From positions 1-63,716 of the forward strand of contig JACQRJ010000027.1 of the NCBI GenBank assembly GCA_016206505.1: DNA of 63,716 nt, written 5' to 3'. The notes beneath the pieces are model-generated. The model was not told the DNA's origin. It saw only the letters and a list, made by a program, of their open reading frames with translations, and did no database searches. A program made the translations under genes and the position numbers. Shown here in pieces: positions 1 to 59,770 of the stretch. Within the stretch, counting starts at the first letter, position 1; every line of letters starts with the position of its first letter. The DNA comes from Candidatus Peregrinibacteria bacterium. GTDB taxonomy: Bacteria; Patescibacteriota; Gracilibacteria; UBA1369; LOWO2-01-FULL-3.

Positions 1-187
1 GCCCATGAATCAGTCAACAATTCGGTAAGAAAATCACTCAATTTTCAAAAATACCTCATTGAAAAACAAGATTCGAGTTATTTTACTTCTAATTCAACAC
101 TCTCAGGGGAGCTTTGTTTTTCGAGGTGCGAATTGAGCCCATCGCTTGGCGAGGGCGAACCTGAGCAGCGAGAAAAATAAGGCTCCC

Positions 188-3235: not shown

Positions 3236-3434
3236 AGGGACTTATGAAATCAAGTTCAAGGGCATGCAACAAATTAATTCAAACTATTTTCCCTTAACGT
3301 AGTCAATTCTGTGAGAAAAAATCTGCAAATAAATACATAAATAAATAAAGATCAAGCAATTTTCCACGAAAAAGGCTTGAAATAAAGCTGAAAAAGATTT
3401 AGATTTCCGCAAACTTTATAAAAACTACGAAAAT

Positions 3435-42572: not shown

Positions 42573-43370
42573 TCAAAACTCATAATCCAGCAAAGTTATC
42601 AGATTTCTGATCTGTGCGTGATATTCTTTTGGATAAGAAAATGCGTAAATCATATTGCTGATTTTCACCGTCAAAAATGCCACGCCGGAGCGCTTGGCAT
42701 CATTCATAAAAAAAGATCCCTGTCCAAACTCATTAGTTTCATTTATCTCTGTATCAAGTCCTTCCGAAGCTCTTACTTTCAAAACTTCGTAAACCTCGGT
42801 GATCGAACTAGCCGGTCCGACCTGTAAAACATAAATTTTAGCTAATAAAATTTCAGCGCTTTTCACGAGTGTCTTTGTCACATTCAAATCATACAAATCA
42901 TCCACATAAACGGTTTTAAAGACAAAACCGTTATGGGGCTCATTTGAAAGAATTGCATTTGCAAAGCCAGAGCTCTTGATCTGATCATCACGGATATAAA
43001 CATTTGTTGCCCAATTGGCATAATTTTCACTTTCAAAATCGGAGGAATCTTCCGCATTGGTATTGCTATCCAGAGTCGTACTGGCAGAAACTTCCAGGCT
43101 GGAAGCATCCGAACTCTCTCTAGATATGCCATCCCCTTCATCAATCTGCGCAGAGTCAACAGGATCGGTTGCAACAGAAGAACCCAGCACATTTGTCTCC
43201 ATACTTTTGCTCAAATCCAGACTCTCCGGCAATGGCACTTCCGTACCATCGGATAAAACTTCTTCCGAAGCACCTTCTTCAACGGGAAAATAATCATTCA
43301 TGGCAATTTCCGCCATCACAACTATCACTATAATGGTCAGAAGAACCGTAAAAACTGTAAATTTTCGCAT
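42573..43370 (-). CDS. Hypothetical N-terminally anchored protein inserted between nusG and rplK
   Basis: 265 aa. TM FTVFTVLLTIIVIVVMAEIAM, an acidic Ser/Asp-rich linker and a C-terminal globular part. No family recognised. Confidence 0.55.
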   Translation of the reverse strand: MRKFTVFTVLLTIIVIVVMAEIAMNDYFPVEEGASEEVLSDGTEVPLPESLDLSKSMETNVLGSSVATDPVDSAQIDEGDGISRESSDASSLEVSASTTLDSNTNAEDSSDFESENYANWATNVYIRDDQIKSSGFANAILSNEPHNGFVFKTVYVDDLYDLNVTKTLVKSAEILLAKIYVLQVGPASSITEVYEVLKVRASEGLDTEINETNEFGQGSFFMNDAKRSGVAFLTVKISNMIYAFSYPKEYHAQIRNLITLLDYEF

Positions 43371-43568: not shown

Positions 43569-44114
43569 TTACTTTTTTTTGATCTGCGTAAAATCCAGTT
43601 CAACCGGAGTCTCTCGTCCGAAGATTGTAATAAGAACCTTAACTTTACCCTTTTCTTCATCAATATTGCTGATAACTCCTTCATAATTGGCAAAAGGCCC
43701 TTCCAAAACCACCACATGATCGTTGTCAGTAAAGTCGATTTTGAATTTAGGCTCAGCCTGACCCATATGTTTTTTAATCACTTTCCACTCTTCCGGAGAG
43801 ACAGGCACGGGAATAGTTCCAGAGCCTACAAACCCCGTAACATTTGGAGTATTTCTCACCACATACCAACTGTCATCGGTCACGACCATATCAACAAGAA
43901 CATAGCCTGGAAAAATGCGCTTTTCTTGAGTAATCGGCTCACCCTTCTTGATGACGATTTCAGTTTCCTTTGGTACAACAACATCAAAAATCAAATCCTG
44001 CATGCCCAACGACTCGATACGTTGAAGCAAAGCCTCACGCACCGCATCTTCATAACCTGAATAAGTGTGAACCACATACCAATGGCGACCTGTATCTTTC
44101 GCTTGTCGTGACAT
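43569..44114 (-). CDS. nusG: Transcription termination/antitermination factor NusG
   Basis: WYVVHTYSGYEDAV (NGN) and C-terminal KOW (GPFANYEGVISNID...KVKVLITIFGRETPVEL). Confidence 0.9.
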   Translation of the reverse strand: MSRQAKDTGRHWYVVHTYSGYEDAVREALLQRIESLGMQDLIFDVVVPKETEIVIKKGEPITQEKRIFPGYVLVDMVVTDDSWYVVRNTPNVTGFVGSGTIPVPVSPEEWKVIKKHMGQAEPKFKIDFTDNDHVVVLEGPFANYEGVISNIDEEKGKVKVLITIFGRETPVELDFTQIKKK

Positions 44115-44117
44115 AAC

Positions 44118-44318
44118 TTAAAATTTCAAATTGACTAAATAACTATAAAGCTGACCAAATAAATAATCGACCGCACCCAAAACAACGGCCGCAACAAGGC
44201 AGAAAATAAGTACAATAATGCTGATTTTTACAGCTTGTTGTTTGGTCGGCCATGTAACCCTGGTCAACTCCTCAAAACTTGCTCTTAAATAATTTGATAC
44301 CGCGTTTACTGCTTTCAT
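44118..44318 (-). CDS. secE: Preprotein translocase subunit SecE
   Basis: 66 aa. ELTRVTWPTKQQ followed by one TM. Conserved position upstream of nusG. Confidence 0.8.
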   Translation of the reverse strand: MKAVNAVSNYLRASFEELTRVTWPTKQQAVKISIIVLIFCLVAAVVLGAVDYLFGQLYSYLVNLKF

Positions 44319-44409: not shown

Positions 44410-44438
44410 TTGCTAAAAAAGCCAAAAAATGCTAAAAT
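44410..44438 (+). promoter_or_regulatory. Sigma70-like promoter of the pilin-like/PKD operon
   Basis: TTGCTA-N17-TAAAAT with an extended -10 TG (TGcTAAAAT). It overlaps the upstream ATG at 44429, which favours the 44459 start. Confidence 0.45.
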
Positions 44439-44458
44439 ATCAGGAAACAAAAATACAA

Positions 44459-45394
44459 ATGAAAACTCTCTTTCAATTCACGCTCGTCATGGGTTTAATG
44501 GCTCTTGCCCTGCATTTGCCTGCATTTGCCGCCAATCTTCCCATCACAAGAGACGTATATGAGGCCTCAAATATTCCGCGTCCGCCGGACAAGGAAGGCA
44601 AAGAAATTGTTAAGGATCTGGTTTTTGGCGGTTTAAGATATGTAAAAGTGATCGCAGCTGTTCTCGGCATCCTCATGATTACAGTCATGGGCTTCAAACT
44701 GGTAATAAATAATGGAAACGAAGAGGATGTCACAACTTCCAAGAGGGGACTGATCTTTGCAATAGTTGCTTTCGTAATTATCAGCATGTCTCAGGACATA
44801 GCCAAAATCTTCGACATGGAAAAGAAAAGCATTTTGGATAGCCCGCAGGAAATTCTCAACCGCGTACACCTTTTTGATAAGCAGGTCGAAATTTTCATGA
44901 CCTTCACGAAATACGCGATTGGCGCTTATGCCACTTTGATGGTAATTCGCTCAGCCATAAGTTTGATTACAGGCGGAGGCAACGAAGAAGAGACTACAAA
45001 GCATAAAAAAGGCATTATGTTCAGCGCTGCGGGACTGCTTTTGATTTATGTCGGAGAAGTTTTTGTGCAAAAAGTTTTCTACAAAGTGGACAAAAATGTC
45101 TATTCCGGCATCAATGGAAATCATCCCGGAGTGGATGCAAAGGAAGGTGTTGAACAAATCTCCGGAATCATCAATTTGATCATTTCCTTCATTGCTCCGA
45201 TTGCTGTTTTAATGCTGATTGGCGCTGCGATTATGTATGCAACCGCCCGCGGCGAAGACGAACAGATGCAAAAAGCCAAAAGACTTATTACAGCGATTGT
45301 TATCGGAATTGTAATCATTTACGGAGCTTTTGCTTTTGTGAATACTATTATTTTAAGCCGATTGACTGAAATCGGTGTAATTGCCGAATCATGA
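44459..45394 (+). CDS. Secreted/membrane protein made of three VirB2/TrbC-like hairpin (TM-loop-TM) modules
   Basis: Signal peptide MKTLFQFTLVMGLMALALHLPAFA. Three modules, each with a G(G/N)GNEE(D/E) or RGEDE loop between two hydrophobic helices (e.g. VIAAVLGILMITVMGFKLVINNGNEEDVTTSKRGLIFAIVAFVIISM). The ORF track starts at 44429. Confidence 0.7.
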   Translation: MKTLFQFTLVMGLMALALHLPAFAANLPITRDVYEASNIPRPPDKEGKEIVKDLVFGGLRYVKVIAAVLGILMITVMGFKLVINNGNEEDVTTSKRGLIFAIVAFVIISMSQDIAKIFDMEKKSILDSPQEILNRVHLFDKQVEIFMTFTKYAIGAYATLMVIRSAISLITGGGNEEETTKHKKGIMFSAAGLLLIYVGEVFVQKVFYKVDKNVYSGINGNHPGVDAKEGVEQISGIINLIISFIAPIAVLMLIGAAIMYATARGEDEQMQKAKRLITAIVIGIVIIYGAFAFVNTIILSRLTEIGVIAES

Positions 45395-46434
45395 GAAAAT
45401 TGATTAAATCATTCATTTTTGCCGTATTACTTTTGAATCTTGGATTGACACTCAATCTTGTAGCTACAACGGCATCTGTTTTTGCAGAAGAGCCGCAAGA
45501 AAAAAATGACAAAACTTCCCAGGGTTTCAATCCCCTCGATACGATTATTGAAATCGGCGACCCTACAGGATTGCCCAATTTCTATACAAAAGGCGACAAA
45601 CATGTCGATGCCCCAAATGACTTTACCGAGCCGGGCGTAGGAACAGCTACCAGCCCGATCCTTTATGCGATTGATCTTTTCCGCTATCTGGTTAGCGGCG
45701 TTGCTTTAATTATGATATTTATTGCCGCTGTCAAACTGATTTCCACCGCGAACGAAGAGGAAGCTGAAAAAATGAGAAAAAATCTTATCTTTGGAGTGAT
45801 TGGACTTTTGATAATTCAACTTGCTGATGTTGCGGTGAAAAAAATGTTTTTCGGAGAATCGGGCGAAGCCTTTGAAAGTGAAGCGGTAGCCGAGGATTTT
45901 GCGCGGGAAAGTGTCGATCAGATTCGTGGAATCATAGGCTTTGTAGAAGCTTTTGTCGGTATTGTCGCTGTTCTTGTACTTGTGATCCGCGGCTTTACCT
46001 TGATTGTCGGCAGCGGCGAGGAGGAGGATATTACCAAAGCCAGAAGGCATGTCACTTATGCTATAGCCGGCCTTGCAGTTATCGCCATTTCCGAAGTTGT
46101 GGTGCGCGGTGTTATTTTTCCCGCCGCCGGAGAAGAATTGCCCGATGTCAATAAAGGAAAATTCATTCTTATAGAACTTGTGAATTTTATCACCGGCTTT
46201 ATCGCCATAATCTGCTTCGCTATTCTTTTTTATGGCGGCTACAAATACGTTGTTTCCGCCGGCAATGAAGAGGAAAACGAAAAGCTGAAAAAACTTTTGA
46301 CCGGCACTTTGATCGCTTTGGCTTTGACTCTCGGTGCCTTCGCTCTGGTGAATACTTTGGTGAAATTCGATCCCAAAGAAGTAACGCCTGCGGAAGAAAC
46401 CAAGCCGAAATCGCCGGAAATTATTGAACAGTAA
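45391..46434 (+). CDS. Second protein with three VirB2/TrbC-like hairpin modules
   Basis: ATGA start/stop overlap with the upstream gene. Modules carry STANEEEAEK, GSGEEEDITK and SAGNEEENEK loops flanked by hydrophobic helices. Pro/Glu-rich tail. Confidence 0.7.
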   Translation: MRKLIKSFIFAVLLLNLGLTLNLVATTASVFAEEPQEKNDKTSQGFNPLDTIIEIGDPTGLPNFYTKGDKHVDAPNDFTEPGVGTATSPILYAIDLFRYLVSGVALIMIFIAAVKLISTANEEEAEKMRKNLIFGVIGLLIIQLADVAVKKMFFGESGEAFESEAVAEDFARESVDQIRGIIGFVEAFVGIVAVLVLVIRGFTLIVGSGEEEDITKARRHVTYAIAGLAVIAISEVVVRGVIFPAAGEELPDVNKGKFILIELVNFITGFIAIICFAILFYGGYKYVVSAGNEEENEKLKKLLTGTLIALALTLGAFALVNTLVKFDPKEVTPAEETKPKSPEIIEQ

Positions 46435-46477
46435 CATTTGCTAACAAATTCTTTCAAATCTATAATCGAAAAGAAAA

Positions 46478-49400
46478 ATGCCCCTCATGAAAAAACTCAT
46501 CTCATTCCTCCTGGTAAGCCTGATAGCTGCTTTTGCATTAAGTTTTGCAAGCATAAGTGTTGCAAATGCAGGCGCGCTTGATGAGCTTAAGAAACTTATT
46601 ACTTCTGGAGATCAGGACGGAACCGATTTTACGGAATTCAAGCCGGGAGAAGATCTCACTTTGACTGCAGATGGCTTGAACGAATCGCTGACAACTGAGG
46701 ACAATCTTAAGTCTTATGTTATCCGTGTGGTAAATTTTGCTTTGGGCTTTTTGGGACTTATAGCTATAATAATTGTAATTTATGGCGGCATACTTTATGT
46801 CACTGCGGGAGGAGAAGAAGAGAAGACTCAAACAGGTAAAAAAGCGATTACTTACGCTGTTATCGGTATCATTATCATTCTGGGCTCATTTGCTTTTGTA
46901 AATACGATTATCAAAGGCGCCAGTGGCGGCAAAGAAAATGGCAGATTTGTTTCCGGCAGCGCTATCGGTAATAGTTTCAATGCATCGGCCGTACAGGTAA
47001 GAAATATCGCCCGCGAAATTTATACCGGATTTATATTGCTTTCAGAATCCGCGGAGGAATTAAAAGGAATTTTAAGTGATCTGGATAAACCTCAATTTTC
47101 ATACAAAAAAACTCTTGTGGATCGCAATAATATGCTTAGCTTTCTTGCCAGCGCCGAGGCGAAGTTGCGCAATATTCAGGCAAGATTGATCAAGTTTTCC
47201 ACCGCCTACACACGCATAAACGAACTTCTGCGTTACATAGATTTGGCCAAAAGTCAGGTTCAGGCGGCCAATGACTTTCAGCTAGCCAAAATTAACGGTG
47301 GAAATTTGAATGTTGAAACATGTGAAATATCCAGACCGGATAGCACGGGAGCATCTACAGGATTTGGAGCAACAGGTGGCACTACTGGCGGAATTGGAAG
47401 CGCGACAAGTAGTAATACAGACCAGAAGGCGGAATATTGCGCAGGATACAGTGAATATCCAGTCGATCTTGTGCCTATCTGGAATGGAATTAGCGAAAAT
47501 CTCCTCGATGATGAGACAAATCCTTTGAGCATTAAATATGTTTTTGATCCCTTGAAAAAAGATTATTTGCGCAAGCTTTTAAGCTTTTTCTCCGAGTTAC
47601 AGGATATCAGGGATACTTTAACAGGCTTGAAAGCCGCAGAGGCGGGAGACATCGGCAAGGTCTATGACCAGATGAAAGCCACTTTTGGTTTCACGGATGA
47701 TGATATAAAAAAGACCACTGATGGAGGGTTTCCCGATAATGCCTATAATGCAGGATTTATCGGAGCACTTTATAATTGGGAACTTTACAATACCGCAACC
47801 GGAGACGACAAAGGAGCGGTTACCGAGCAAATGGGTGTCATGCTGCTTTCCGCCCTGGAAAAACAGTTTGAATTTGCCGACCTTTTAACCAAATTAAAGT
47901 CCGTTGAAGCACATTTAAGGGCCAATGTGATAAATGGTAATGCGCCGCTTGTCGTTACTTTTGACATTATAGACAGTCTTGATCCCGCCGGCGGCACCAT
48001 CGTTCCAAGCAATATCAAATGGAATTTAAGCGGCGCCCAAACCTTTGAAGGTGAAAATCTTCAGGACGAAAGCCTGCAAAAGGTTGCCATTACAGCCGAT
48101 ACCGTCGTATGCGACGAAGGTACATATACCGACAAGCCCGACCTTTATGGCACGGTTTTCCGACAATGTACTTTCAAACGTCCGGGCACTTATGTCGCCA
48201 CAGTGACTATCGGTTCCAACGATCCGACAAAATTCATTTCCGGACAAAGCAGCTTGATAATCAAAGTAAATCCGCCAACCAACAAAATAGATCTCAATGT
48301 AAAACCGCAAAGCGCTCAACAAGGCGTCAATGTCATCTCTTATTACACCAACGGCTTACTGAAAAACGATCAGGATCTCGTGCCAATGACTTTGAAAGAA
48401 GCCAAATCTGTCATTTTTGACGCAAGCGGCACCACTCCAAAAATTACCAATTTCACCTGGGATTTTGGCGATGGCACAAAGATAGATACCGATGCCTCCG
48501 GCAAACAAACTCATGAATACAAAGTGGAAGGAAAATATCGCGTTCAGCTTGAAGTCATCAATGAACTTGGCGAACTCGATCGCAAAATTTTCACAGTTGA
48601 AGTGCGCAATATCGCAGCCAGAATTCAGGTTTCACCGACAGAGAATATCCTTATAGATCAGGCGGTTTTGATCGATGGCCGACTTTCCTCGGCATCTTCC
48701 GGCAAAATCAAACTCTACGAATGGAAATTAACCAAAATTTCCGGCCAGGGAGCGCCAAAAGATGTCGATCTGACTTTAAACAAAAACAAAAGTTCTTTCA
48801 GCCACAAGTTTGCCGAGCCCGGCAAATATCAAATCGATCTCACTATCACCAGTGATCTGGAAACCGTTTCCGCTCAACCATATTTTGTCACTGTCGCCAG
48901 CAAACCTCCTGTCGCCATTTTTGATCACAAAACTCCAGAGCCACATCAGCCCGGAACTGTTCATTTCAACGGTTCAAAAAGCTTTGATCCGGATGGCGAG
49001 GAAGAAAATCTGCTCTTCAATTGGACCATCGAGCCCGACAGCAACAATGGCAAAAACTGGCTTTATATAGTAGACAATAGAAGCTCTTTACAAAAAGCGC
49101 CGAAAGTGAAATTTCTTAAGAGCCAGGAATATGAAGTTACTTTGAAAGTCACCGATAAAAACACTCTTGCCGCAGATCTCAAAGAAGAATCCGGCGAAAT
49201 TACCAAAAAAATCGAGATCAAAAACGTCCTGGATATCGCCTGGGATGAAAATCAAAATGTCACTGCCGTACTCGATAAAGATGGCAAAGCCACAATTAAT
49301 TTCAAATTTGAAAGTACCAATGGCAAAGCCTATGAAATCAATTTTGGTGACGGCGAAAAAAGTTCCGGCGATATCAAAATTTCCGCCGTTGTGCCGCATA

Positions 49401-51490
49401 CTTATACCGAAGGCGGCAAATTTACCGCCGAAGTAAGAGTTTACGACGCAGATGACAATGACAATTCCGTCAAACGCACGATTTTCATCGGTGGCAGCAA
49501 TTCACCGATTGCCAAAGCTGAAATTCTTGTCAATGGAGTGCAGATTCCAGATACTTCGGAAATAATCGATGTTTACAAAAAAGATGTCCTGACTTTTGAT
49601 GCCAGCGCTTCAAAAAACATCGACGGTTCCGGCAGAAATTTAAAATACAGTTGGGATTTTGGCGACACCGAGTTGAGTTCAAACAAAACCGCAACTCATT
49701 CATATAAGGAATTGAGTCCAAAAGATCCAGGATATTTCACAGCCAGTTTAAAAGTTTTTGATAAAGATGAACCAAATAAAATCAGCGAGGATAAATTGAA
49801 AATTCGTGTAAATGCCAGCGCCCCGACTTTTTCTTCTTTGCAGGCCGTACCGGAGACCAGAGATGGTAAATTGATTACACCCGTTACAGTAAACCTCAAG
49901 GCCTTCAATCCCGAGGATAAAGACGGCCAAATCACCCAATACAAATGGTGGTATTTCGATGTCGATGATCCCGATGAACAGCTTGGTGTTCAGGTGACAC
50001 AAGTACCGTCAGCCAGGTTGATAATCGGAACAAGCGGCAAGGAAGGCCTTGAGCGCGAATACGGCTTTGGCCTCGAAGTTACCGACTCGGATAATTTGAA
50101 AACTTCTTCCGAAGATATTTTCGATAAAAACAATGTCCCGAAAGTAAAAGTAAAAAACGGCCCCAATGACTTGCCGATTGCCAAATTCAGTGTAAATACC
50201 ACGAAAGTTTTCACCGGCGATGAAGTCACTTTCACAAGCAGTTCCAAGGATCCCGATGGCAAAATTACCGCTTATATCTGGGATCTGGAAGGGGATGGAT
50301 TTTTCAATAACATGCCGATTGATAAATCTGTTGTCGAGTATGTATATAAGGAACAGAAAAAAGATGGTTATGAAGTCCGCTTAAAAGTTCGCGATGACAA
50401 GGGTGGAGAAGCCGTTTCCGAGCCTGTAAAGATTTATGTGCAGACTTTGGCAAAAGCTCCAACCGCCGCTTTCAAATTTCAGGTCATCGAAGGTTCCGGC
50501 GGCAAAAAAGTGAAATTCACCAATAATTCAACAGCCGACAAAGATGCCGGCGCCGAAATCATCGCTTTCAAATGGGATTTTGACACCGCCTCACAATTTG
50601 ATAATGCCGATTCAGACGGTGACGGTAAAAAAGATAACGATAGCGATTCTACAGCCAAAGAACCCGAACGTCTTTATATCGATGCCGGAGAATATGTTGT
50701 GAAATTAACAGTCACCGACAATCAGGGCTCCACAGATGAGACAACGCAGAAGTTGGTAATTCCACTCGCCAATGCCCCTACAGCCGCCTTTACTTACAAA
50801 ATAGTGGCCGGCAAAATTATTTTCACGGACAATTCCACCGCTGACACGGCGAAAGGAGCTAAAATTGAAAAATACACCTGGGACTTCGATACCGATTCAC
50901 AGCTCGATAATGCCGATTCAGACGGCGACGGCAAAAAAGATAATGACAAAGATTCTACCGAAAAAGAGCCTACATTTACTTATCCAATCGAAGGAGAATA
51001 TAAAGTGAAACTTATGGTTACCGATAACTACGGCAACACTGATGATGTTGTAAATAAAGTAAATACCAAGACCGGACCAAACTTGAGCGATCCGGGAAAC
51101 TTTGGCGATAATCCCGATGACCCGATAGACGGTTTTGGTCTGAAAGACCCCAATAAAAAAAGTCCATCACAATCCCTGGTTGCCGTCATGAGCAGCAATC
51201 CAAAACCGGACAAAGATGGAATACTTTACCTCACAGGCGACAAAGGCACGGTTACTTTTGATTTCACCGGCTCAATCGGACAGATCGCCGATTACACTTT
51301 TGATAAAAATATCTATTTCGATACCGACAAAAATGGTATAAATCATGACGACCAGGATTTTAAAACACCATTGCCTGGTACCTGGACAACGAATTTCGAA
51401 AAAGCCTGGGGCAAGATCGTCGTCAAGCTCACAATCAAGGACATCTACGGCAATGAAAATTCTGTCAGCCAGGAAATAAAATTTAAATAA
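46478..51490 (+). CDS. Giant surface protein: signal peptide, one pilin-like hairpin module, a helical region, then ~10 or more PKD/Ig-like domains
   Basis: 1670 aa. Module LGLIAIIIVIYGGILYVTAGGEEEKTQTGKKAITYAVIGIIIILGSFAFVNT. Repeated PKD signatures (WDFGDGT...H.Y...G.Y.V.L.V.D). Two domains carry DSDGDGKKDND Ca-binding-like inserts. Confidence 0.8.
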   Translation: MPLMKKLISFLLVSLIAAFALSFASISVANAGALDELKKLITSGDQDGTDFTEFKPGEDLTLTADGLNESLTTEDNLKSYVIRVVNFALGFLGLIAIIIVIYGGILYVTAGGEEEKTQTGKKAITYAVIGIIIILGSFAFVNTIIKGASGGKENGRFVSGSAIGNSFNASAVQVRNIAREIYTGFILLSESAEELKGILSDLDKPQFSYKKTLVDRNNMLSFLASAEAKLRNIQARLIKFSTAYTRINELLRYIDLAKSQVQAANDFQLAKINGGNLNVETCEISRPDSTGASTGFGATGGTTGGIGSATSSNTDQKAEYCAGYSEYPVDLVPIWNGISENLLDDETNPLSIKYVFDPLKKDYLRKLLSFFSELQDIRDTLTGLKAAEAGDIGKVYDQMKATFGFTDDDIKKTTDGGFPDNAYNAGFIGALYNWELYNTATGDDKGAVTEQMGVMLLSALEKQFEFADLLTKLKSVEAHLRANVINGNAPLVVTFDIIDSLDPAGGTIVPSNIKWNLSGAQTFEGENLQDESLQKVAITADTVVCDEGTYTDKPDLYGTVFRQCTFKRPGTYVATVTIGSNDPTKFISGQSSLIIKVNPPTNKIDLNVKPQSAQQGVNVISYYTNGLLKNDQDLVPMTLKEAKSVIFDASGTTPKITNFTWDFGDGTKIDTDASGKQTHEYKVEGKYRVQLEVINELGELDRKIFTVEVRNIAARIQVSPTENILIDQAVLIDGRLSSASSGKIKLYEWKLTKISGQGAPKDVDLTLNKNKSSFSHKFAEPGKYQIDLTITSDLETVSAQPYFVTVASKPPVAIFDHKTPEPHQPGTVHFNGSKSFDPDGEEENLLFNWTIEPDSNNGKNWLYIVDNRSSLQKAPKVKFLKSQEYEVTLKVTDKNTLAADLKEESGEITKKIEIKNVLDIAWDENQNVTAVLDKDGKATINFKFESTNGKAYEINFGDGEKSSGDIKISAVVPHTYTEGGKFTAEVRVYDADDNDNSVKRTIFIGGSNSPIAKAEILVNGVQIPDTSEIIDVYKKDVLTFDASASKNIDGSGRNLKYSWDFGDTELSSNKTATHSYKELSPKDPGYFTASLKVFDKDEPNKISEDKLKIRVNASAPTFSSLQAVPETRDGKLITPVTVNLKAFNPEDKDGQITQYKWWYFDVDDPDEQLGVQVTQVPSARLIIGTSGKEGLEREYGFGLEVTDSDNLKTSSEDIFDKNNVPKVKVKNGPNDLPIAKFSVNTTKVFTGDEVTFTSSSKDPDGKITAYIWDLEGDGFFNNMPIDKSVVEYVYKEQKKDGYEVRLKVRDDKGGEAVSEPVKIYVQTLAKAPTAAFKFQVIEGSGGKKVKFTNNSTADKDAGAEIIAFKWDFDTASQFDNADSDGDGKKDNDSDSTAKEPERLYIDAGEYVVKLTVTDNQGSTDETTQKLVIPLANAPTAAFTYKIVAGKIIFTDNSTADTAKGAKIEKYTWDFDTDSQLDNADSDGDGKKDNDKDSTEKEPTFTYPIEGEYKVKLMVTDNYGNTDDVVNKVNTKTGPNLSDPGNFGDNPDDPIDGFGLKDPNKKSPSQSLVAVMSSNPKPDKDGILYLTGDKGTVTFDFTGSIGQIADYTFDKNIYFDTDKNGINHDDQDFKTPLPGTWTTNFEKAWGKIVVKLTIKDIYGNENSVSQEIKFK

Positions 51491-51495
51491 AAACC

Positions 51496-53862
51496 ATGGA
51501 TGAGAAAACTACCAAAGATGTGAAAGCGGAAGATTTTGGCATGGGCGATGACGCACAAGCGCAAGGCCAACCCCAAGCTCCAAAAATCAATAATTACGCC
51601 AGAGATATCAAGCCCTCCGCACAAACTTCGACAGAAAAACCTCAAGTCGATCCCAAGGACAATCCGCCACCGGTCACTTCTAACACTCAGCCCGCTCAAT
51701 CATCGCAGTCAACAGCCTCAGCAACCCCCACCAACAGCTCACCCTCACCCTCAACTTCAGCTACAACAAGCTCACCCCAAGCCACCGGCAAAACCATCGG
51801 CCAGGTAAAAAGCGGCAAAACTTTGCCGCCGCCCATGGATCCCGCCAAAAAGAAAAAAGTCGTACTCGGCTGCCTCGGGGGCTTCGGTTCAATCATGTTG
51901 ATCTTCTTAGGGATAGCATTTTTATTCATCTCCCAGTCTGACGAAACCACTACAAATCCGATCGCCAAGCTCCTAAATCTCAATCAGGCCAGCTTCATCA
52001 ACGGCTTAATCACGTTCATCCATCTCATTTTCATACTTGTTTCACTTACGGTTTTCGTCTTTACCATGGTTGGCGTTTTCAAAGCCAGCATGGCCAAAAA
52101 AGATGACAAGGATGCAAAACGCGCGGGCTTAAAAATGAGCATGATTTCCGGCATCATTCTTGTAATAGTATTCTTTGTTTGGGCTTTTGTTTATTTTTAC
52201 CTCGACGGCAAAAGGATCAACGTACAAACTGCGGATATAGCGCCGATTATCACCGAGCCTGAAGATACGCTAAATCTTACCGCTCCGGTCGATATTCGTT
52301 TCGATGCCAGCAATGTTCCCGTCGATCAGCGCAAATTTCAGATCATTTCCTACGACTGGAATTTTGGTGACAAATCTACTGGAACAAGTCAAATAGTTTC
52401 CCATACCTTTGAGGAAAAAGGCCGCTATGACGTTGTTTTGAAAGTTACAAAAATCGACAAAAAAACCGGTGAAGAAACGGTCGATAGCTACACTGTCATT
52501 GTCAGCATTCAAAATGAAGCACTTTCCGCCATCATCGAAGCCGATCCGCAATCCGGTCCAGCGCCGCTGAAAGTAAAACTCGACGGCGGAAAATCAGAAG
52601 ATCCGGATGGCACAATCAAAACCTACGAATGGGATCTTGATGAAGATGGCGAATTTGATGACGGCACAGGCAAAACCGTTGAAAAGGAATTCACCAAAAT
52701 CGGCAAATATAAAGTCTCTTTGCGAGTTGTTTCCAGCACCGAAGAATTTGATATAGCCGAAAAAGAAATCATCGTGGAACAGGCCAAACTTCCAGAAGCG
52801 AAAATCGAAATTACCGATAATCCCACAGCATTTACGACCGGCGTTGAATATATTTTCAAATCCGCATCCACTTCGCCAAACGGCTCGATAGAAAAATACG
52901 AATGGGATTTTGGCGATGGCAGCAAACCTGAAGCCACCAAAACCGTCTCCCACACATTTACCAAAGAAGGTACTTTTGATGTTACATTGAAAGTCATTGA
53001 TGAAAAGGAAGAAGAAGCACAGACACTGATGTCTATCACAGTTGGCTCACCACAAGGCACGCCTAAGGCAAAAATTGAGACTGATCCCGTTTATACCGCA
53101 GGCACAATAAATCTCGAAGGCGAAGTGCCTTTTATTGTTGCCTTCGACGCTTCCGGCTCTACGGATAGCGATAATAATATCGTGGATTATGCCTGGGACT
53201 TTGATGATGATGCAAAAAATGATAAATTTAGCGCAAAAACCACATATACTTTCACTCTTGAAGGCACTTATACAGTGAGGCTGTCGGTTACCGATGCCGA
53301 TGAAAATGTTGGAACTGCAAGTGTGATAATTAAAGTGAAAGCCCAGGGAATAAAAGCCAATCTGCAGGCCGATAAAATCGAAGGCAGCATACCTTTGACC
53401 GTAAAATTTGATGCTTCCGGTTCGAGTTATCAAAATGGGCAGATTACGAGTTATCAATGGGACTTCGGCGATGGCGGCAAGCCAAAAGTAGGCAGTGCCA
53501 AAATCAGCCATAAATATACGGAAATCGGAACATACACCGCGGCGGTTACGGCAATAGGCGGAGATAACAGTCGCTCAACCGCTCAAATAATTATCACTGT
53601 GCGCGAGATTCCTTTGACTGCCTGTTTTGTTTCCGTTTTTGAAGAAGGCAAAGCGCCGCTCAAGACGACTTTTGATCCAGGCTGCAGCACCGGCACGGCG
53701 GTGAAATATTTTTGGGATTTTGGAGACGGACAAAACTCAACCGAAGTAAATCCTACACACGTCTACGAAAGCGCCGGCGACTACACTGCGACTTTGGAAA
53801 TAGCGGATGCTGACAATACGGTCTCTTCCGCCAGCCTGAAAATCACTGTAACCGCAGAATGA
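51496..53862 (+). CDS. Membrane protein with a low-complexity N-terminus, 3 TM and six PKD domains
   Basis: 788 aa. S/T/P/Q-rich first ~110 aa. Three hydrophobic helices. Six WDFGDG/WDLDEDG-type PKD repeats. Confidence 0.8.
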   Translation: MDEKTTKDVKAEDFGMGDDAQAQGQPQAPKINNYARDIKPSAQTSTEKPQVDPKDNPPPVTSNTQPAQSSQSTASATPTNSSPSPSTSATTSSPQATGKTIGQVKSGKTLPPPMDPAKKKKVVLGCLGGFGSIMLIFLGIAFLFISQSDETTTNPIAKLLNLNQASFINGLITFIHLIFILVSLTVFVFTMVGVFKASMAKKDDKDAKRAGLKMSMISGIILVIVFFVWAFVYFYLDGKRINVQTADIAPIITEPEDTLNLTAPVDIRFDASNVPVDQRKFQIISYDWNFGDKSTGTSQIVSHTFEEKGRYDVVLKVTKIDKKTGEETVDSYTVIVSIQNEALSAIIEADPQSGPAPLKVKLDGGKSEDPDGTIKTYEWDLDEDGEFDDGTGKTVEKEFTKIGKYKVSLRVVSSTEEFDIAEKEIIVEQAKLPEAKIEITDNPTAFTTGVEYIFKSASTSPNGSIEKYEWDFGDGSKPEATKTVSHTFTKEGTFDVTLKVIDEKEEEAQTLMSITVGSPQGTPKAKIETDPVYTAGTINLEGEVPFIVAFDASGSTDSDNNIVDYAWDFDDDAKNDKFSAKTTYTFTLEGTYTVRLSVTDADENVGTASVIIKVKAQGIKANLQADKIEGSIPLTVKFDASGSSYQNGQITSYQWDFGDGGKPKVGSAKISHKYTEIGTYTAAVTAIGGDNSRSTAQIIITVREIPLTACFVSVFEEGKAPLKTTFDPGCSTGTAVKYFWDFGDGQNSTEVNPTHVYESAGDYTATLEIADADNTVSSASLKITVTAE

Positions 53863-53863
53863 C

Positions 53864-53965
53864 ATGTCTAAAAAAAATCAGAAAACTTTCATTTCTATCG
53901 TTGCCGCTCTTGTTATCCTCGGCCTTCTGATGAGCATTGTTTTGCCTTTTGTCGGCGGGTACTAG
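53864..53965 (+). CDS. 33-aa single-TM peptide (not in the ORF track)
   Basis: ATG 1 nt after the upstream TGA. MSKKNQKTFISIVAALVILGLLMSIVLPFVGGY has a basic N-terminus plus one TM. Confidence 0.35.
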   Translation: MSKKNQKTFISIVAALVILGLLMSIVLPFVGGY

Positions 53966-54079: not shown

Positions 54080-55456
54080 TCAGCCCTTCGCAATTCTATT
54101 CCTGATCTCCAGATATCGCAGATCTTCTCTTCCCAAATTCGCCGTCTCTCTGATGGTCAAATTTTGCTCATCAATCAGCCCGTTATGCATGAATGCGTGG
54201 TGCTCTTTGCAAAGCGGAATAATATTTGCATGCGAGCGGCTTTTTGCCCATCTCTCGATATGATGCAGCACTTTGTATGGTTTGTTGCAGTTCGCATAAG
54301 CACAGCGATTGTTTGTTTTAGCGAGGGCGGCGGTACGGATAGATTTTTTGATGTAGGTGCGGCGGGAGACATGGCCGCCTTGCCCATCTGTTTTGCGTGG
54401 GAGGGGCGCGTCCAATGGCTTTGCGCATTCAATTGGCGAATTTTCGTACCCGGAATTTGAAAAATAAAGAATTTCCAGTTCGGAGATTTGTATAGGGTTG
54501 ATCTCTTCGTCTGCGCTATCGCTTTCAGAAGCAATGTCGTAATTTTCTCTTAATGCGGGCATTGCACTTGAAATTTTCCCCACGCCTACGGCGGGCGCAG
54601 CGGGAAAATCTTGGACAATTTTCAGATTTTGTTGCTTTGTATACGCAGGGATTTTCGCATCTGCACGACTGCCGTCCGATTGCTTTTTCTCTGCAAATTT
54701 CAGTTCAATCATTTCGCATAATATTCTTCTCAAAACTTCTTTGTTCGAAAGTTTTTCACCGTATTTCCGCTTTAGTTTCAAAAACAAATATTGCATTTCA
54801 TTGTCCAGATCAATGCTGATTTTTTGGACCGCGCGGCATTTTCGCAAATTTTCTATCTCGCCATCCTGCACCCCGCAGCCGGAGCCATGATCTGCCACAA
54901 TCCGCATTTGCTGACCGTCTTCCACATTTCGCCCACTATGCAAATTTTGCTTTTCCCTCAATTCCCGCGCATATTCCAGTACGGCATCCTTGTTCGCGCC
55001 CTGCACGAAATCGGCCAGCATTTTTTCGTTTTCAGATGTTGCGACAGTGGCTACCAAAGCCACTTTATGGATCCCCTCGATACCGATTGCAGCCTTCAAA
55101 TTCGGCTTATCCTCAACCTTTTTCGCCACCTGCATAGTTTTGTGCACAACCGCTTCACTTAGCCCACCCAAAATCTTCGCATAATGTGCCAGGCTCTGAA
55201 ATCCCTCTTTTTCCCAGATGTGCAAACGATCAATTTCCGGCAGCATGGTCAGAAGCTCATAGCCAAGTTTTCGACGATCTTTTCCGAGACGGACAAATTT
55301 TTTGTGCAGGGATTTTTCGGGCGACAATGGCTTTGATTTCTGAAGAGGACTGAGTCCAGTTCCTCCAGTGCGATCATTCAAGGACATTTTTTCCGGATTT
55401 TCCATAGAATTTGAAGTTAAGAAGTATTGAAAAATATGGCAAAAATCGTCCATCAA
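54080..55456 (-). CDS. HNH endonuclease with a DUF222-like N-terminal domain
   Basis: C-terminal HNH/zinc motif CAYANCNKPYKVLHHIERW...IPLCKEHHAFMHNG. N-terminal region with the WEKEGFQSLAHYA pattern. The start may be the internal MENPEK. Confidence 0.8.
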   Translation of the reverse strand: MMDDFCHIFQYFLTSNSMENPEKMSLNDRTGGTGLSPLQKSKPLSPEKSLHKKFVRLGKDRRKLGYELLTMLPEIDRLHIWEKEGFQSLAHYAKILGGLSEAVVHKTMQVAKKVEDKPNLKAAIGIEGIHKVALVATVATSENEKMLADFVQGANKDAVLEYARELREKQNLHSGRNVEDGQQMRIVADHGSGCGVQDGEIENLRKCRAVQKISIDLDNEMQYLFLKLKRKYGEKLSNKEVLRRILCEMIELKFAEKKQSDGSRADAKIPAYTKQQNLKIVQDFPAAPAVGVGKISSAMPALRENYDIASESDSADEEINPIQISELEILYFSNSGYENSPIECAKPLDAPLPRKTDGQGGHVSRRTYIKKSIRTAALAKTNNRCAYANCNKPYKVLHHIERWAKSRSHANIIPLCKEHHAFMHNGLIDEQNLTIRETANLGREDLRYLEIRNRIAKG

Positions 55457-55990: not shown

Positions 55991-58900
55991 ATGGCATTTT
56001 TCCAGGTTGATGAAGAGCAAAAGCTAAAGAAAGCCCTGAACTCCGGCATAAAAAAAGGTAATCTGAAAATTATCGGTGCCGTACTCGGTGTGCTTGTTTT
56101 GGTCATTGTTTTTACAATGGTCGACTTTGGAAATTTATTCAAAGGGCAGTTGGAACTTGCTTCTTGCGGGCAGCCCACGGATGCAACTTATTTCACCTGT
56201 GTCGCTGAAAAGGCAAAAGCGGGAAATTGTGACGATATCAGTGATGCGGCCGGTGGCACAATGGTTAGCATAGAACTTTTCAAATCGACAGTGGCCGCAG
56301 AACAGATCAGCAAGCTGAATCAGCTTACCGATACGCTTGTCATAGAGTATCAAAATAAGTCCTGTGACACAGGTTTTCTGGCAAATTATTCACGAGAAGA
56401 GCTTTTAAATTATAAAAACTACTGCTATCCCGGAAGTTTCTTCGCCTATAAACAGAGAAATGCAGTCGGCAACATCATGAATGCCTGTGTACCTCTTCCG
56501 GACGGCCCTTTCATGGAGATGCTGACAAAGAAATACACTAAGGCTGATGAAAAAAAGCAGTGGGAAGATTTTTACACTGCAACGTTTGAAGCGATTTACA
56601 AACAGTCAAACATCAATTTAAACGACCGCACCTTTCTAACTGAACTGAAAACCGACGCCAATTACAAAACCCTCGCCTACACTAAAACGATCATCGAAAA
56701 CATCATCATCGAAAAATTCACCTGCAAAGAAGGTCCGGCTTATGTGCCCGATCCTGCAAATGCAGGGAAATGTACGCTAAGCTGCGACAATGCTCGTTCC
56801 GAGATCAGCAAGGCGGCCACTTCGTATTATATCGCTTTGCAACAGGGCAAACCCGCAACCGAGAAAGCGCAATACTTAAAAACCGTTGCAGACCTTGTAA
56901 AACAGGCTCAGGCTAAAGGTTGCTATGCAACTAAACTTGAAGAAGTGCAAAAACTCTGCAGTTCATTTGATCTTTATCAATACGAACTTGGTTTGAGCGC
57001 TGAAGAAAATACACTTTTGCCGAGCATCACTACCGATCTGAAATGTTGCAGCGGCCCGGGGCAGAGTCTCGAGACCGGCGTGTGTGCGTATAAAGATCTC
57101 AAATTCCAGGAAGATCTCGTAAGCTCACTTGCACTTTACAAGTATGCCCTCGAAAAAAACGCCACCGATACCGAAAAAACAAAATCTGCAACTCACCTAA
57201 AAGCGACTCTCGACGCCTATAAGGCACAATTTGAGGCTTTGGGATTGTCGAAATTTACCAATGCCTACATGGAGGGAAAGGCGGTTGCAGGCACCTGTGC
57301 GGACGAATTGGCGATTTTAAATTCCAACAAAATGTCCACAGACGCAACCGGCAAAGCTTTGACGGACTCCCTCACGGATTCTTCAAAACTTTTACAATGT
57401 TGCCCGCAGCCAGGCTATTACAAACTCGTTTCCGATCCTACGAACGGCGAAAAACCGGTCTACAGCTGCGCCGTCCCCACCGAAGAATTCAAGGATTTTC
57501 AATTGGGGCAGAAGCAGTGTTACGAAAGCGATGAATTATCAGGGGAAATCGGAAAAATATTTGAAATATCCACAATGCAGATTGTACTGGCTGCCAAGGA
57601 GCAAATATCCCCACCGCAAACGCTTTCTTGCAGTGACCCGGCTTATAAATATCTCCCGGCCTGTAATTCCGGAGGAACCTTATCATGTAAAGAAAATCCT
57701 CAAAAAGATAATGAGATATCCAGTACAAATTTTTATTGTGAAAATCGTGTTTTTGAGGAGAGCGAGAAACCGCAAAAATCTACGTGCGCACTTGATCCAT
57801 ATAACGTTGCTTGTGAATTTGCCATGGAATTCTACATTGATAATGAGGGCGTTGAGCCCACAGAGCAGTATTATAAAGATGTTAAAACTGCCTGCACCGA
57901 ATTGGATGAAAATGGATTGACAAAAGAGTGGTGTCAAGTTGTTTGCAGTGATTATCCCAATTATTACGGTTGTGTTTATAAAAAAGAACCGCAAACAACT
58001 CTGGACTGCAAAAATCCGGCCATCAAAACTTTCTTTGAAAAAGAATGTGAAGCGGCGAAGCCAAGCGTAGTAGACTGTTCCGAAAACAAAGACATTCCTG
58101 AATGTACTCAGGCTGCCGAAGGATCCGCTGAAACAACTCTGGAATATAAAGTCATCAAGCCTCTCTACGATGACCTCAAAGCCAAAAACGATGCGGCAAT
58201 ATCAACTTTCCTGCAGTCCGTAAAAGCTCTCGACGAAACTACAAAAAACAGCTGCAAATTAACCGAACTAAGCGCAAATAAGCCAATCTGCGGCGCACTT
58301 CGCGATACATTGACTGCTGCAGCATACAAACCATCCGACTACATCGACAGCATCAAAAACAACCTCAACACTCTCGCAAACGAAACTCTCCGCTGCTGCT
58401 ATTACGAAAATGAGGGCAATACCGATCTCGAAATAAATTTCGCTACAAGCGATGCCCAAACCGGCTTCACCTGTTCAAGCAAATCGGTGAAGGCCCCAAC
58501 AATAAAATCTCAATACACCGACAAAACCACATTCAATCCGACAGCACTCGAAAAACTGAAAATCACTTATACCGTCGATCAGGGCGCTACGGTCACTATT
58601 TCAATCAACGACATCACCGGCACTGAAGTTTACAAATTCGATGATGTAAACGTCGCGGCACAGGCAGTCACCTCTCATTTCTGGGACGGAAAAGCCAATG
58701 CCGGCACAAACGCAGGAAAAATAGTGAACAACGGCACATACAGCTACAGCCTAAAGGCCAAAAATTCCGCCCCCGGAAGCTCGGCGGTTGGCGGCAACTT
58801 CACCGTCACCGGAACCACGGTTCAGCCTCCCCAAGTCATCCCACAGCCCGATGTCAAATGTACCGATAATCAGCTCGCAGACAATTCAACAAAAATCTGT

Positions 58901-59770
58901 ATCAGCGGCGAATGGGTACTTTGTACCGAAGGCGGCATATATGACGGCCAGAAGAGTGTCGACAAAAAGCTCACCTGTGCCGGAGGCAAATGGATTGATC
59001 TTTCAAATCCGCCACCGCCACCCCCTCCCAAAAATGAATCTAAGGACCCTCCTTGCGTCGAAAACAACACCATGATGGAAGGAAAACGCCTCTGTAAAGG
59101 CGGGGAGTGGATAACCTGCGTACCAAATCTCGAAGGAAAAAAGAGCTCTGACGGACAAAAAGAATGTAAAAACGGCATTTGGGGCAAAGCCGGAGTGACT
59201 CCTCCTGGCACAACTCCTCCGGGAGCAACTCCGCCGGGCGGCGACCAAAGTTCCGGCAATATCAAAATCACCAAACATTCCGTTTTCCCCGTCGGCTTCA
59301 ACCCTCTTATCAATGAATCCAAAATCGCCTACACGATCTCCGCCAAAGCCGAAGTGGAAATCCGCATCCTCACCCAATCCGGCGTCACAATTACTACACT
59401 TGTGGACAATAAAGTCCTCGACCAAGGCGAATATTTCGTCTATTGGGACGGTACAAATAATGCAAGCGGCAACGGCAAAGTCGTTGATCCCGCAACTTAT
59501 CAATACAAAATCACCGCCAAAGATCCAAACAACGGCACTGTCAAGGATGTGAAGACCGGAAATGTAAACGTTGTTTACGTGAAATCCGCCGACTTTGAAA
59601 ACGGTAGCAGCAGTTCTGTGACCGTTCCACCGGTAAACAATCAGGCTCAGGCCACTGTTGCCATGCAAAATGCCACGGGCGGCAAAACCGCAGGCACAGG
59701 TCCCGGAATTCTGATTTATGCTTTATTCCCACTTGCCGGCTACTTTATTTCCCGCTACAAAAAGAAATAA
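55991..59770 (+). CDS. Large Cys-rich surface protein with two FlgD-Ig-like domains, Pro-rich linkers and a C-terminal sorting-like anchor
   Basis: 1259 aa. N-terminal TM/signal anchor. Recurrent CC motifs (LKCCSGPG, LQCCPQPG, LRCCYYEN). Duplicated ~50-aa Cys module (C..G.W..C). PPPPPPP and (TPPG)x3 linkers. Terminal GPGILIYALFPLAGYFISRYKKK. Confidence 0.8.
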   Translation: MAFFQVDEEQKLKKALNSGIKKGNLKIIGAVLGVLVLVIVFTMVDFGNLFKGQLELASCGQPTDATYFTCVAEKAKAGNCDDISDAAGGTMVSIELFKSTVAAEQISKLNQLTDTLVIEYQNKSCDTGFLANYSREELLNYKNYCYPGSFFAYKQRNAVGNIMNACVPLPDGPFMEMLTKKYTKADEKKQWEDFYTATFEAIYKQSNINLNDRTFLTELKTDANYKTLAYTKTIIENIIIEKFTCKEGPAYVPDPANAGKCTLSCDNARSEISKAATSYYIALQQGKPATEKAQYLKTVADLVKQAQAKGCYATKLEEVQKLCSSFDLYQYELGLSAEENTLLPSITTDLKCCSGPGQSLETGVCAYKDLKFQEDLVSSLALYKYALEKNATDTEKTKSATHLKATLDAYKAQFEALGLSKFTNAYMEGKAVAGTCADELAILNSNKMSTDATGKALTDSLTDSSKLLQCCPQPGYYKLVSDPTNGEKPVYSCAVPTEEFKDFQLGQKQCYESDELSGEIGKIFEISTMQIVLAAKEQISPPQTLSCSDPAYKYLPACNSGGTLSCKENPQKDNEISSTNFYCENRVFEESEKPQKSTCALDPYNVACEFAMEFYIDNEGVEPTEQYYKDVKTACTELDENGLTKEWCQVVCSDYPNYYGCVYKKEPQTTLDCKNPAIKTFFEKECEAAKPSVVDCSENKDIPECTQAAEGSAETTLEYKVIKPLYDDLKAKNDAAISTFLQSVKALDETTKNSCKLTELSANKPICGALRDTLTAAAYKPSDYIDSIKNNLNTLANETLRCCYYENEGNTDLEINFATSDAQTGFTCSSKSVKAPTIKSQYTDKTTFNPTALEKLKITYTVDQGATVTISINDITGTEVYKFDDVNVAAQAVTSHFWDGKANAGTNAGKIVNNGTYSYSLKAKNSAPGSSAVGGNFTVTGTTVQPPQVIPQPDVKCTDNQLADNSTKICISGEWVLCTEGGIYDGQKSVDKKLTCAGGKWIDLSNPPPPPPPKNESKDPPCVENNTMMEGKRLCKGGEWITCVPNLEGKKSSDGQKECKNGIWGKAGVTPPGTTPPGATPPGGDQSSGNIKITKHSVFPVGFNPLINESKIAYTISAKAEVEIRILTQSGVTITTLVDNKVLDQGEYFVYWDGTNNASGNGKVVDPATYQYKITAKDPNNGTVKDVKTGNVNVVYVKSADFENGSSSSVTVPPVNNQAQATVAMQNATGGKTAGTGPGILIYALFPLAGYFISRYKKK

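Follow-up and report, generated by a model that had tools for sequence, protein, structure and literature searches.

A core envelope operon of the class Peribacteria combines T4SS_pilin hairpin modules with PKD-domain proteins

Five adjacent genes encode hairpin-module and PKD-domain proteins

We examined a 63,716-nucleotide (63.7-kb) contig of Candidatus Peregrinibacteria bacterium (JACQRJ010000027.1, assembly GCA_016206505.1), the whole of which is referred to here as the window, and within it a cluster of five genes, termed g1 to g5, whose products are built from two-helix hairpin modules and PKD domains. The closest relatives were metagenome-assembled genomes (MAGs) labelled Candidatus Peribacteria, Peregrinibacteria or "Gracilibacteria", which indicates that the source organism is a bacterium of the Candidate Phyla Radiation (CPR)/Patescibacteria using the standard genetic code. 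An initial annotation, made from the DNA letters, had described five tightly packed plus-strand open reading frames (ORFs), and these are as it stated, with an ATGA overlap of g1 and g2 at 45391-45394, a 5-nt gap between g3 and g4 and a 1-nt gap between g4 and g5. Its account of the two downstream genes likewise agrees with ours, with g4 encoding 788 aa that include three hydrophobic segments and six PKD domains, and g5 a 33-aa transmembrane (TM) peptide. The genes are:

44429-45394, plus strand: g1, 321 aa (311 aa if the start is at 44459), signal peptide and three T4SS_pilin hairpins
45391-46434, plus strand: g2, 347 aa, signal peptide and three hairpins, paralogue of g1
46478-51490, plus strand: g3, predicted 1670-aa surface protein with signal peptide, one hairpin, a helical domain, an immunoglobulin (Ig)-like domain, a PKD array and a C-terminal domain
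51496-53862, plus strand: g4, 788 aa, low-complexity tail predicted to be in the cytoplasm, three TM helices and an array of six PKD domains
53864-53965, plus strand: g5, 33-aa peptide, basic at its N-terminus, one TM helix

Seven hairpin modules occur in a 3+3+1 arrangement

The Pfam profile PF18895 (T4SS_pilin, named after type IV secretion systems, T4SS; gathering cut-off 26.6 bits) matched three stretches of g1 (E 5e-15, 55.7 bits), three of g2 (E 1.5e-20, 73.5 bits) and one of g3 (E 4.5e-8, 33.5 bits), with g4 falling below the cut-off (11.9 bits, E 0.25). A lineage-specific module hidden Markov model (HMM), built from the modules of orthologues, detected exactly those seven and none else in the window. 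The seven modules proposed beforehand, three in g1, three in g2 and one in g3, were therefore recovered by both profiles, and the acidic loop motif, G-x-G-N/E-E-E and then K/R, is present as it had been described. Their positions, with E values for the lineage module HMM unless noted, are:

44603-44827, plus strand: g1 module 1, E 4e-21
44864-45103, plus strand: g1 module 2, E 2e-27
45134-45358, plus strand: g1 module 3, E 8e-25, terminal type with an FAFVNT motif; also a PF19607 match
45637-45873, plus strand: g2 module 1, E 2e-23
45904-46140, plus strand: g2 module 2, E 2e-26
46147-46383, plus strand: g2 module 3, E 5e-23, terminal type with an FALVNT motif
46700-46927, plus strand: g3 hairpin module, E 5e-26 (PF18895 E 4.5e-8), terminal FAFVNT type

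All seven module positions were mutually homologous when compared with hhalign (probability 96-99.8%), while pairwise identity among the modules of the window was 17-43%. Modules of g1 and g2 paired by position (g1m1 with g2m1, g1m2 with g2m2 and g1m3 with g2m3), which indicates that the two genes are paralogues of an ancestor that was already triplicated, and the module of g3 was nearest to the terminal type (hhalign with g2m3, E 1e-28). Only the last module of each protein has kept the canonical motif G-x-F-A-x-V-N-T at its C-terminal end, with the internal modules having diverged, and this motif is also found in free-standing single pilins of other lineages. Hydropathy and AlphaFold2 (AF2) models showed the hairpins of g2 and g3 (H77-109 and H114-148) to consist of a pair of hydrophobic helices linked through a short polar loop. 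The AF2 model of g2, based on a 57-sequence alignment, comprised a signal helix and three long helical hairpins (predicted local distance difference test, pLDDT, 79.8; predicted template modelling score, pTM, 0.61).

The modules belong to the T4SS_pilin family and may be distant relatives of VirB2

The modules had first been likened to VirB2/TrbC pilins, a kinship that stands in so far as PF18895 and NF045849 were matched, but is only marginal for VirB2/TrbC proper. NF045849 (Mbov_0395 pilin-like conjugal transfer; cut-off 40 bits) matched g1 and g2 at 45.8 and 55.2 bits, respectively, with g3 below the cut-off at 33.1 bits, although the neighbourhood of these genes is housekeeping and without the context of an integrative and conjugative element (ICE). 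With PF04956 (TrbC/VirB2; cut-off 27.9 bits), module 3 of g1 scored 27.6 bits (E 3.5e-6) and g3 17.4 bits, g2 gave no match, and some orthologues bear precomputed matches to this family. Alignment of the module profiles with mature Agrobacterium tumefaciens VirB2 (8EXH; the sequence was verified against the PDB before use) gave a probability of <2%, which did not exceed that of a reversed control, this being a weak test with a single-sequence template. Searching PDB sequences with g1 and with a profile of the g2 family produced no match, and a Foldseek search of the g2 model against the PDB found none at E<1e-3 and only generic helical bundles. The Pfam family that was matched is nevertheless T4SS_pilin and not an unrelated membrane family, and we regard the modules as PF18895 members that would work like VirB2, and not as demonstrated VirB2 pilins, to which they may be remotely related.

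Other assignments were considered and rejected. A type IV pilus or type II secretion system pseudopilin was rejected as the sole match was of g5 to GspG, whose cut-off of 88.85 bits was far from reached (15.8 bits), and no G/FxxxE motif of a class III signal peptide was visible in the five proteins by direct reading. The Pam pilus of CPR bacteria, whose pilins are Ig-fold, donor-strand-exchange proteins (bioRxiv 10.64898/2026.03.03.709456), was rejected because PamR matches reached 23-25 bits against a cut-off of 300 and fell on the PKD/Ig domains. Searches of Pfam and NCBIfam also gave no above-threshold match of the operon proteins to VirB6/TrbL or transporter families.

PKD arrays of g3 and g4 are predicted to lie outside the cell

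Both large proteins scored above cut-off for PKD_4 (PF18911/PF00801 PKD families), with 201.7 bits for g3 and 290.3 bits for g4. Their regions beyond the g3 hairpin are:

46943-47902, plus strand: g3 helical ectodomain, aa 156-475, more variable than any other part of the operon
47903-48367, plus strand: g3 Ig-like beta-sandwich, aa 476-630, AF2 strands 486-598, weak Ig/adhesin fold matches
48371-51073, plus strand: g3 PKD array of nine domains mapped with jackhmmer, aa 632-1532, PKD_4 E 1.4e-60 and PKD E 8e-53
51212-51484, plus strand: g3 C-terminal (distal) domain, weak PKD-profile match, E 0.004
51841-52230, plus strand: g4 membrane region, signal-anchor TM1 and then a TM2-loop-TM3 hairpin
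52240-53859, plus strand: g4 PKD array of six domains, aa 249-788, PKD_4 E 3e-88

In g3 the signal peptide ends in VANA before a G and is followed by about 50 residues and then the hairpin. The helical domain was modelled by AF2 as helices over residues 161-472 (pLDDT 85-94 over 170-270), and Foldseek comparison of the N-terminal model with the PDB gave no fold match at E<1e-3 and only generic helical bundles and Ig folds. Within the Ig-like domain C545 is nearly invariant and C564 invariant, and the conserved C-terminal domain is possibly a tenth PKD-like domain.

The g4 protein has no signal peptide and instead begins with a 115-aa Pro/Ser/Thr/Gln-rich tail, followed by TM1, a conserved outside loop, TM2, a K/D-rich loop, TM3 and the PKD array. 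Because of this tail without a signal peptide and the three TM helices, g4 clearly looks to be a resident membrane protein. With hhalign, its TM2-loop-TM3 segment could be aligned to the pooled module profile without a shift in register (probability 87%, E 3.8e-6, compared with 1-2% for reversed controls), and the g4-like protein of a metagenome locus described below (L077) matched PF18895 with E 0.0047 over profile positions 9-71. Plain HMMER searches with the g4 segment were not significant (lineage module HMM E 0.15; PF18895 E 0.25), and we consider it probably a degenerate eighth hairpin module. A g5-like peptide, with a K/R-rich start, a TM helix and a conserved Pro, directly followed g4 in 23 of 42 relatives, compared with none of the 42 on the opposite strand.

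Reading of the sequences by eye showed that g1, g2 and g3 each begin with a hydrophobic segment and then an A-x-A-type site, and in each the number of helices after this segment is even. In addition, the density of Lys plus Arg in 57 g2 orthologues was 0.16-0.21 per residue in the hairpin loops versus 0.04-0.10 in the N-terminus, linkers and tail, and the loops exceeded the linkers by a factor of 2-4. Because of these signal peptides, even helix counts and a positive-inside pattern, the hairpin loops would be cytoplasmic and all linkers and both PKD arrays outside. This predicted topology is in keeping with the display of PKD domains that was first envisaged, as it puts neither array in the cytoplasm.

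The operon is conserved across the class Peribacteria

By scanning one genome per GTDB species, we located 71 species-level Peribacteria/Peregrinibacteria loci. In every sufficiently flanked locus the genes for L11, a conserved gene X, nusG and secE lay on one strand, with g1 and g2 (each of three modules), g3 (a single module) and g4 on the other, and the gene order, whose survey in related genomes had been proposed at the outset, is thus retained across these 71 genomes. Orthologues of g1 were present in 67 loci with a median identity of 51%, while g2, of which >100 full-length homologues were found, had a median identity of 46% and carried invariant residues in its predicted extracellular linkers (FFGExGEAF and F-P-x-x-G). 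Orthologues of g3, 1470-2214 aa in length, occupied the same position in 56 loci, and here identity differed strongly between regions, with medians of 49% for the hairpin region, 40% for the PKD array, 49% for the C-terminal domain (found in 52 of the 56) and 27% for the helical domain (detectable in 29 of the 56). After g3, orthologues of g4 of 690-865 aa were found in 45 loci, with a median identity of 55% in the PKD array. We also considered the large genes further downstream as conserved partners but rejected them, as relatives have variable fn3, PKD or unassigned proteins there. Within the class Peribacteria, the cluster forms a core chromosomal operon of the cell envelope.

Related architectures are widespread outside the class

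The fusion and concatenation of modules had been thought undescribed, and here the outcome is divided: such architectures are not rare in public data, while our literature search found no paper describing multi-module polypeptides, hairpin-PKD fusions or this operon. Earlier word-indexed searches with the g3 N-terminus gave 9-10 matches only and an exhaustive search was needed, which with residues 1-620 of g3 retrieved 24,614 representative proteins (E<=1e-3). Modules were counted in the 150 best matches. Of these proteins, 109 exceeded 1000 aa, nearly all having one module, which in most began near residue 60-140, and proteins with 3, 4, 5, 6, 7 and 8 modules were also included. Public metagenome data contain >100 clusters of ~1600-aa hairpin-anchored proteins, and databases label some members merely "pilin". 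Proteins of 552-820 aa made only of tandem T4SS_pilin hairpins were observed as well, including three with six, eight and seven hairpins (P0157, P0194 and P0208, respectively).

Cassettes with other module numbers and gene orders were found in other lineages. In two loci (L076 and L080) a single-module pilin is followed by a hairpin-PKD protein and a g4-like 3-TM PKD protein, while in a third (L077, positions 1-5548; metagenome contig ERZ28563803 scaffold_31446) a PKD giant is followed by a g4-like 3-TM PKD protein and then a triple-module pilin. Because the partnership of pilin hairpin and PKD protein outlasts changes in module number and gene order, this argues for the pair being a functional unit.

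Promoter-like sites suggest two transcription units

The initial annotation had assigned all five genes to one strong promoter, which our analysis does not support, as a better and conserved promoter match lies in the gap between g2 and g3. The two sites are:

44410-44438, plus strand: promoter-like site P1, TTGCTA, a 17-nt spacer and TG-n-TAAAAT, a consensus match only
46438-46466, plus strand: promoter-like site P2, TTGCTA-17-TATAAT in the g2-g3 gap, at 10/12 the best match in the region

Since P1 overlaps the first ATG of g1 (44429), the true start of this gene is probably the ATG at 44459, which gives a normal signal peptide (MKTLFQF...). Promoter-like matches over the region as a whole were at chance level (18 found, 18.2 expected), while a P2-type match of at least 10/12 occurred at the g2-g3 junction in 64% of 53 relatives, compared with 0.7% in coding and 3.2% in shuffled controls. 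A near-consensus sigma-70-type promoter, TTGnnn-17-TATAAT, is kept just ahead of g3 in relatives. Median intergenic gaps in relatives were ~4 nt for g1-g2, ~11 nt for g3-g4 and ~45 nt for g2-g3, and this spacing together with the internal promoter suggests that g1-g2 and g3-g4-g5 are probably separate units, each translationally coupled. A scan of the region revealed no convincing terminator after g5.

The operon lies among housekeeping genes and apart from T4SS genes

Upstream of g1, on the divergent strand, are:

44118-44318, minus strand: secE
43569-44114, minus strand: nusG, with rplK and rplA beyond

Other genes of the window are also housekeeping (ftsA, ddl, purD, purF, folD, hflX, RNase III and tmk), along with several for SLH/FlgD_ig surface proteins. 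GC content is even across the window, and that of the operon equals that of its surroundings. Origin from a mobile element or ICE was rejected in view of this matching GC content and the housekeeping neighbourhood conserved in all relatives.

No VirB4, VirD4, VirB6 or pilus ATPase was found in the ORFs of at least 190 aa scanned across the window, as the first analysis had noted for such partners, and neither VirB4, VirB3, VirB6, VirD4 nor any other ATPase occurred within 10 kb of the operon in the 71 related genomes. A literature search for Peregrinibacteria together with VirB4 found no report.

Other features of the window

Between rplK and nusG, at 42573-43370 (minus strand), lies a gene whose position is kept in ~60 related genomes. 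Its 265-aa product has a TM helix at the N-terminus, an acidic stretch of low complexity and no Pfam match. Beyond the operon, at 54080-55456 (minus strand), lies the gene for a 458-aa protein with an HNH-like motif (HHIERW...CKEHH) and a weak RecA_dep_nuc match. Its homologues occur at varying sites around the operon (L019, L049, L053 and others), including between secE and g1, which suggests a mobile gene. Three more large surface-type proteins with FlgD_ig, SLH or CHU_C-like domains are encoded at 14008-17085 (minus strand), 29338-31335 (plus strand) and 55991-59770 (plus strand); the organism is heavily invested in envelope proteins and probably has an SLH-anchored surface layer (S-layer).

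In a gap without large ORFs, a group I intron was detected at 27043-27320 on the minus strand, where Rfam RF00028 scored 55.6 bits (gathering score 50). The 5' end of this intron is overlapped at 27215-27320 by a tRNA match, which is weak (18.5 bits, E 0.71), and the intron may therefore interrupt a tRNA gene, although ARAGORN calls no tRNA there. Finally, a 798-aa ORF at 3435-5831 (plus strand) matched the N- and C-terminal D-Ala-D-Ala ligase Pfam domains twice each and looks like a tandem-fused Ddl with two complete ligase units.

Discussion

The operon is a widespread, conserved and undescribed form of the published patescibacterial VirB2-like pilin arrays, with a mechanism that we infer. 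VirB2-like pilins and their arrays in Patescibacteria have been reported previously (PMC12102498, PMC10633639, PMC12857230), with 441 hypervariable arrays of 2-11 genes and a mean identity of 25% (PMC12102498). In common with such arrays, for example the essential T4SS array of Southlakia epibionticum, the operon belongs to PF18895 and to the same superphylum, is chromosomal and without a relaxase, and places adjacent PF18895 genes (g1, g2 and g3) that encode divergent paralogous hairpins (17-43% identity, against the mean of 25%). Unlike these arrays, its hairpins are three per polypeptide or fused to a ~1500-aa ectodomain, its module set does not depart from 3+3+1, its sequences are strongly conserved (46-51% identity across the class) and not hypervariable, and it is always paired with a 3-TM PKD protein and not near virB4.

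Comparison with VirB2/TrbC (PF04956; T-pilus 8EXH/8CUE) likewise shows a cleavable signal peptide, two hydrophobic helices, a short polar loop and termini predicted to be outside, although the loop in the operon proteins is acidic (E-E-E) and then K/R, T4SS genes are not adjacent, and mature proteins would be 290-1640 aa and not ~70 aa. The Mbov_0395 family (NF045849), from Mycoplasma ICEs, comes from wall-less/monoderm-type lineages, like the host of the operon, which fits the reported MPF-FATA ancestry of patescibacterial T4SS. However, a member of that family is a single 80-aa hairpin encoded in a mobile element with VirB4/VirD4, while the hairpins of the operon are repeated, fused and chromosomal.

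The explanation that we tentatively prefer, and which is quite possibly correct, is that hairpins inserted by Sec pack together in the membrane and form a base to which PKD arms on the outside of the cell are tethered. Here Sec would insert g1 to g4, leaving the acidic/basic loops of the hairpins in the cytoplasm and the linkers and PKD arrays outside, and the hairpins would pack laterally in the cytoplasmic membrane to form one hetero-oligomeric base. This base would covalently tether a short arm (g4, ~25 nm) and a long arm (g3, ~45-50 nm), which would cross the wall as a surface fibril or adhesin, with assembly proceeding without a dedicated T4SS ATPase encoded alongside, and with separate promoters for g1-g2 and g3-g4-g5 the amounts of base and arm could be set independently. 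Packing into a shared base is proposed because fused protomers tend to be neighbouring subunits of an oligomer. In the proteolipid (c/K) subunits of A/V-type ATPases, a two-helix hairpin protomer has been duplicated or triplicated, which fixes neighbours and stoichiometry. We use this for the step from concatenation to adjacency as an analogy only, without a sequence relationship.

A membrane-resident base agrees with the strong sequence constraint on the operon (medians of 46-55%), unlike that of hypervariable pilin arrays, and with the lack of an ATPase gene in the window or close to the operon in relatives. Several points weigh against it. The contacts between hairpins are ones that we infer, and the family name together with the sub-threshold TrbC match suggests proteins that normally exit the membrane and polymerise, while PKD domains alone are no proof of adhesion. 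In g3 the distal tip is conserved and the membrane-proximal helical domain variable, the reverse of a usual host-specific adhesin, and this pattern fits none of the readings neatly. Furthermore, the class Gracilibacteria presumably includes the Peribacterales. If so, the missing T4SS linkage is weak evidence of T4SS independence, because this class is reported to have its T4SS genes dispersed, VirB3 lying near virB4 in 4.7% only (PMC12102498).

It is also conceivable, though somewhat unlikely, that the VirB2-like hairpin was exapted in CPR bacteria as a self-associating anchor, with eight hairpins of four proteins (3+3+1+1) building a defined ring or raft, inserted by Sec and independent of an ATPase, as the base of a hitherto unrecognised surface organelle with PKD fibrils.

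A true T4SS-dependent pilus, which we regard as possible but on the whole doubtful, would have g1 and g2 as single-chain, pseudo-trimeric major pilins, taken out of the membrane and polymerised by a VirB4-type machine encoded elsewhere, with g3 as a pilin-adhesin at the tip or shaft (an analogue of VirB5 or PrgB) and g4 and g5 as a base left behind. In the solved T- and F-pili both termini of the VirB2-type pilins are on the outer face of the pilus, a position that makes chained subunits or a C-terminal ectodomain geometrically conceivable, and the membership of PF18895, the NF045849 match and the near-threshold PF04956 score speak for such a pilus. In Saccharibacteria such pilin arrays lie within an essential T4SS cluster (PMC10633639, PMC12857230), and VirB4 occurs in 2417 of 3035 Patescibacteria genomes, with T4SS genes scattered in Gracilibacteria (PMC12102498). 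Against this, VirB4, VirB3, VirB6 and VirD4 are missing from the window and from up to 10 kb around the operon in the 71 genomes, the location is housekeeping and conservation is far above that of known pilin arrays, g4 would be unable to exit the membrane, the modules have no detectable likeness to the solved VirB2 pilin, and no pilus of a monoderm T4SS has been observed so far (PMC12857230). The likeness of g3 to PrgB of Gram-positive T4SS or to the VirB5 tip adhesin is one of role under the pilus hypothesis only, as there is no similarity in sequence or fold and g3 is covalently fused to a pilin hairpin, and no PrgB-like adhesins were found in Patescibacteria (PMC12102498).

That the hairpins instead form a channel or envelope-integrity device, for example with g1/g2 as the "missing" VirB6-like part or as a pore with wall- or S-layer-binding PKD domains, seems improbable to us; neither form would have attachment to other cells as its function. 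Such a device would agree with VirB6 homologues being reported as undetectable in Gracilibacteria (PMC12102498), with the six helices of g1 and g2 and their conserved charged residues in or near helices, and with a conservation and housekeeping site that fit core physiology, and the SLH-domain surface proteins of the window could contact a PKD array. It nonetheless leaves one hairpin fused to a 1500-aa ectodomain unexplained, and neither an above-threshold VirB6/TrbL or transporter match nor a fold match was obtained.

The least probable of the alternatives is that g1 and g2 are polyproteins whose linkers are cut by a peptidase after Sec export to give six single-hairpin pilins in fixed 1:1:1 ratios, which would then act like the ordinary single-module pilins of other CPR bacteria. 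In favour of this, each module taken together with the linker before it roughly equals a free-standing pilin in size, g1/g2 are replaced by single-module pilins in the L076 and L080 cassettes, the invariant linker motifs are possible recognition sites and canonical VirB2/TrbC pilins are known to mature by proteolysis. Against it, neither the operon nor its flanks contain a conserved peptidase gene, the linkers appear in the AF2 model as helices that continue and not as exposed loops, the FA-x-VNT ending is kept in last modules only, which suggests that internal modules are no longer free ends, and a structural unit would better explain the class-wide fixed 3+3.

Few CPR-enriched protein families are as abundant as the VirB2-like pilins, which are essential in the one species that is genetically tractable. 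The operon provides a natural experiment on these proteins, with hairpins in fixed chains and numbers, fused to large labelable ectodomains and apart from a T4SS ATPase, so that the question of pilus subunit or membrane anchor becomes directly testable. Its proteins are also candidate attachment structures for Peribacteria. More generally, the operon warns that PF18895 matches are not always evidence of a type IV secretion system, and if the hairpin was indeed exapted as the self-associating base of an organelle, many of the thousands of annotated patescibacterial "T4SS pilins" would not be T4SS parts.

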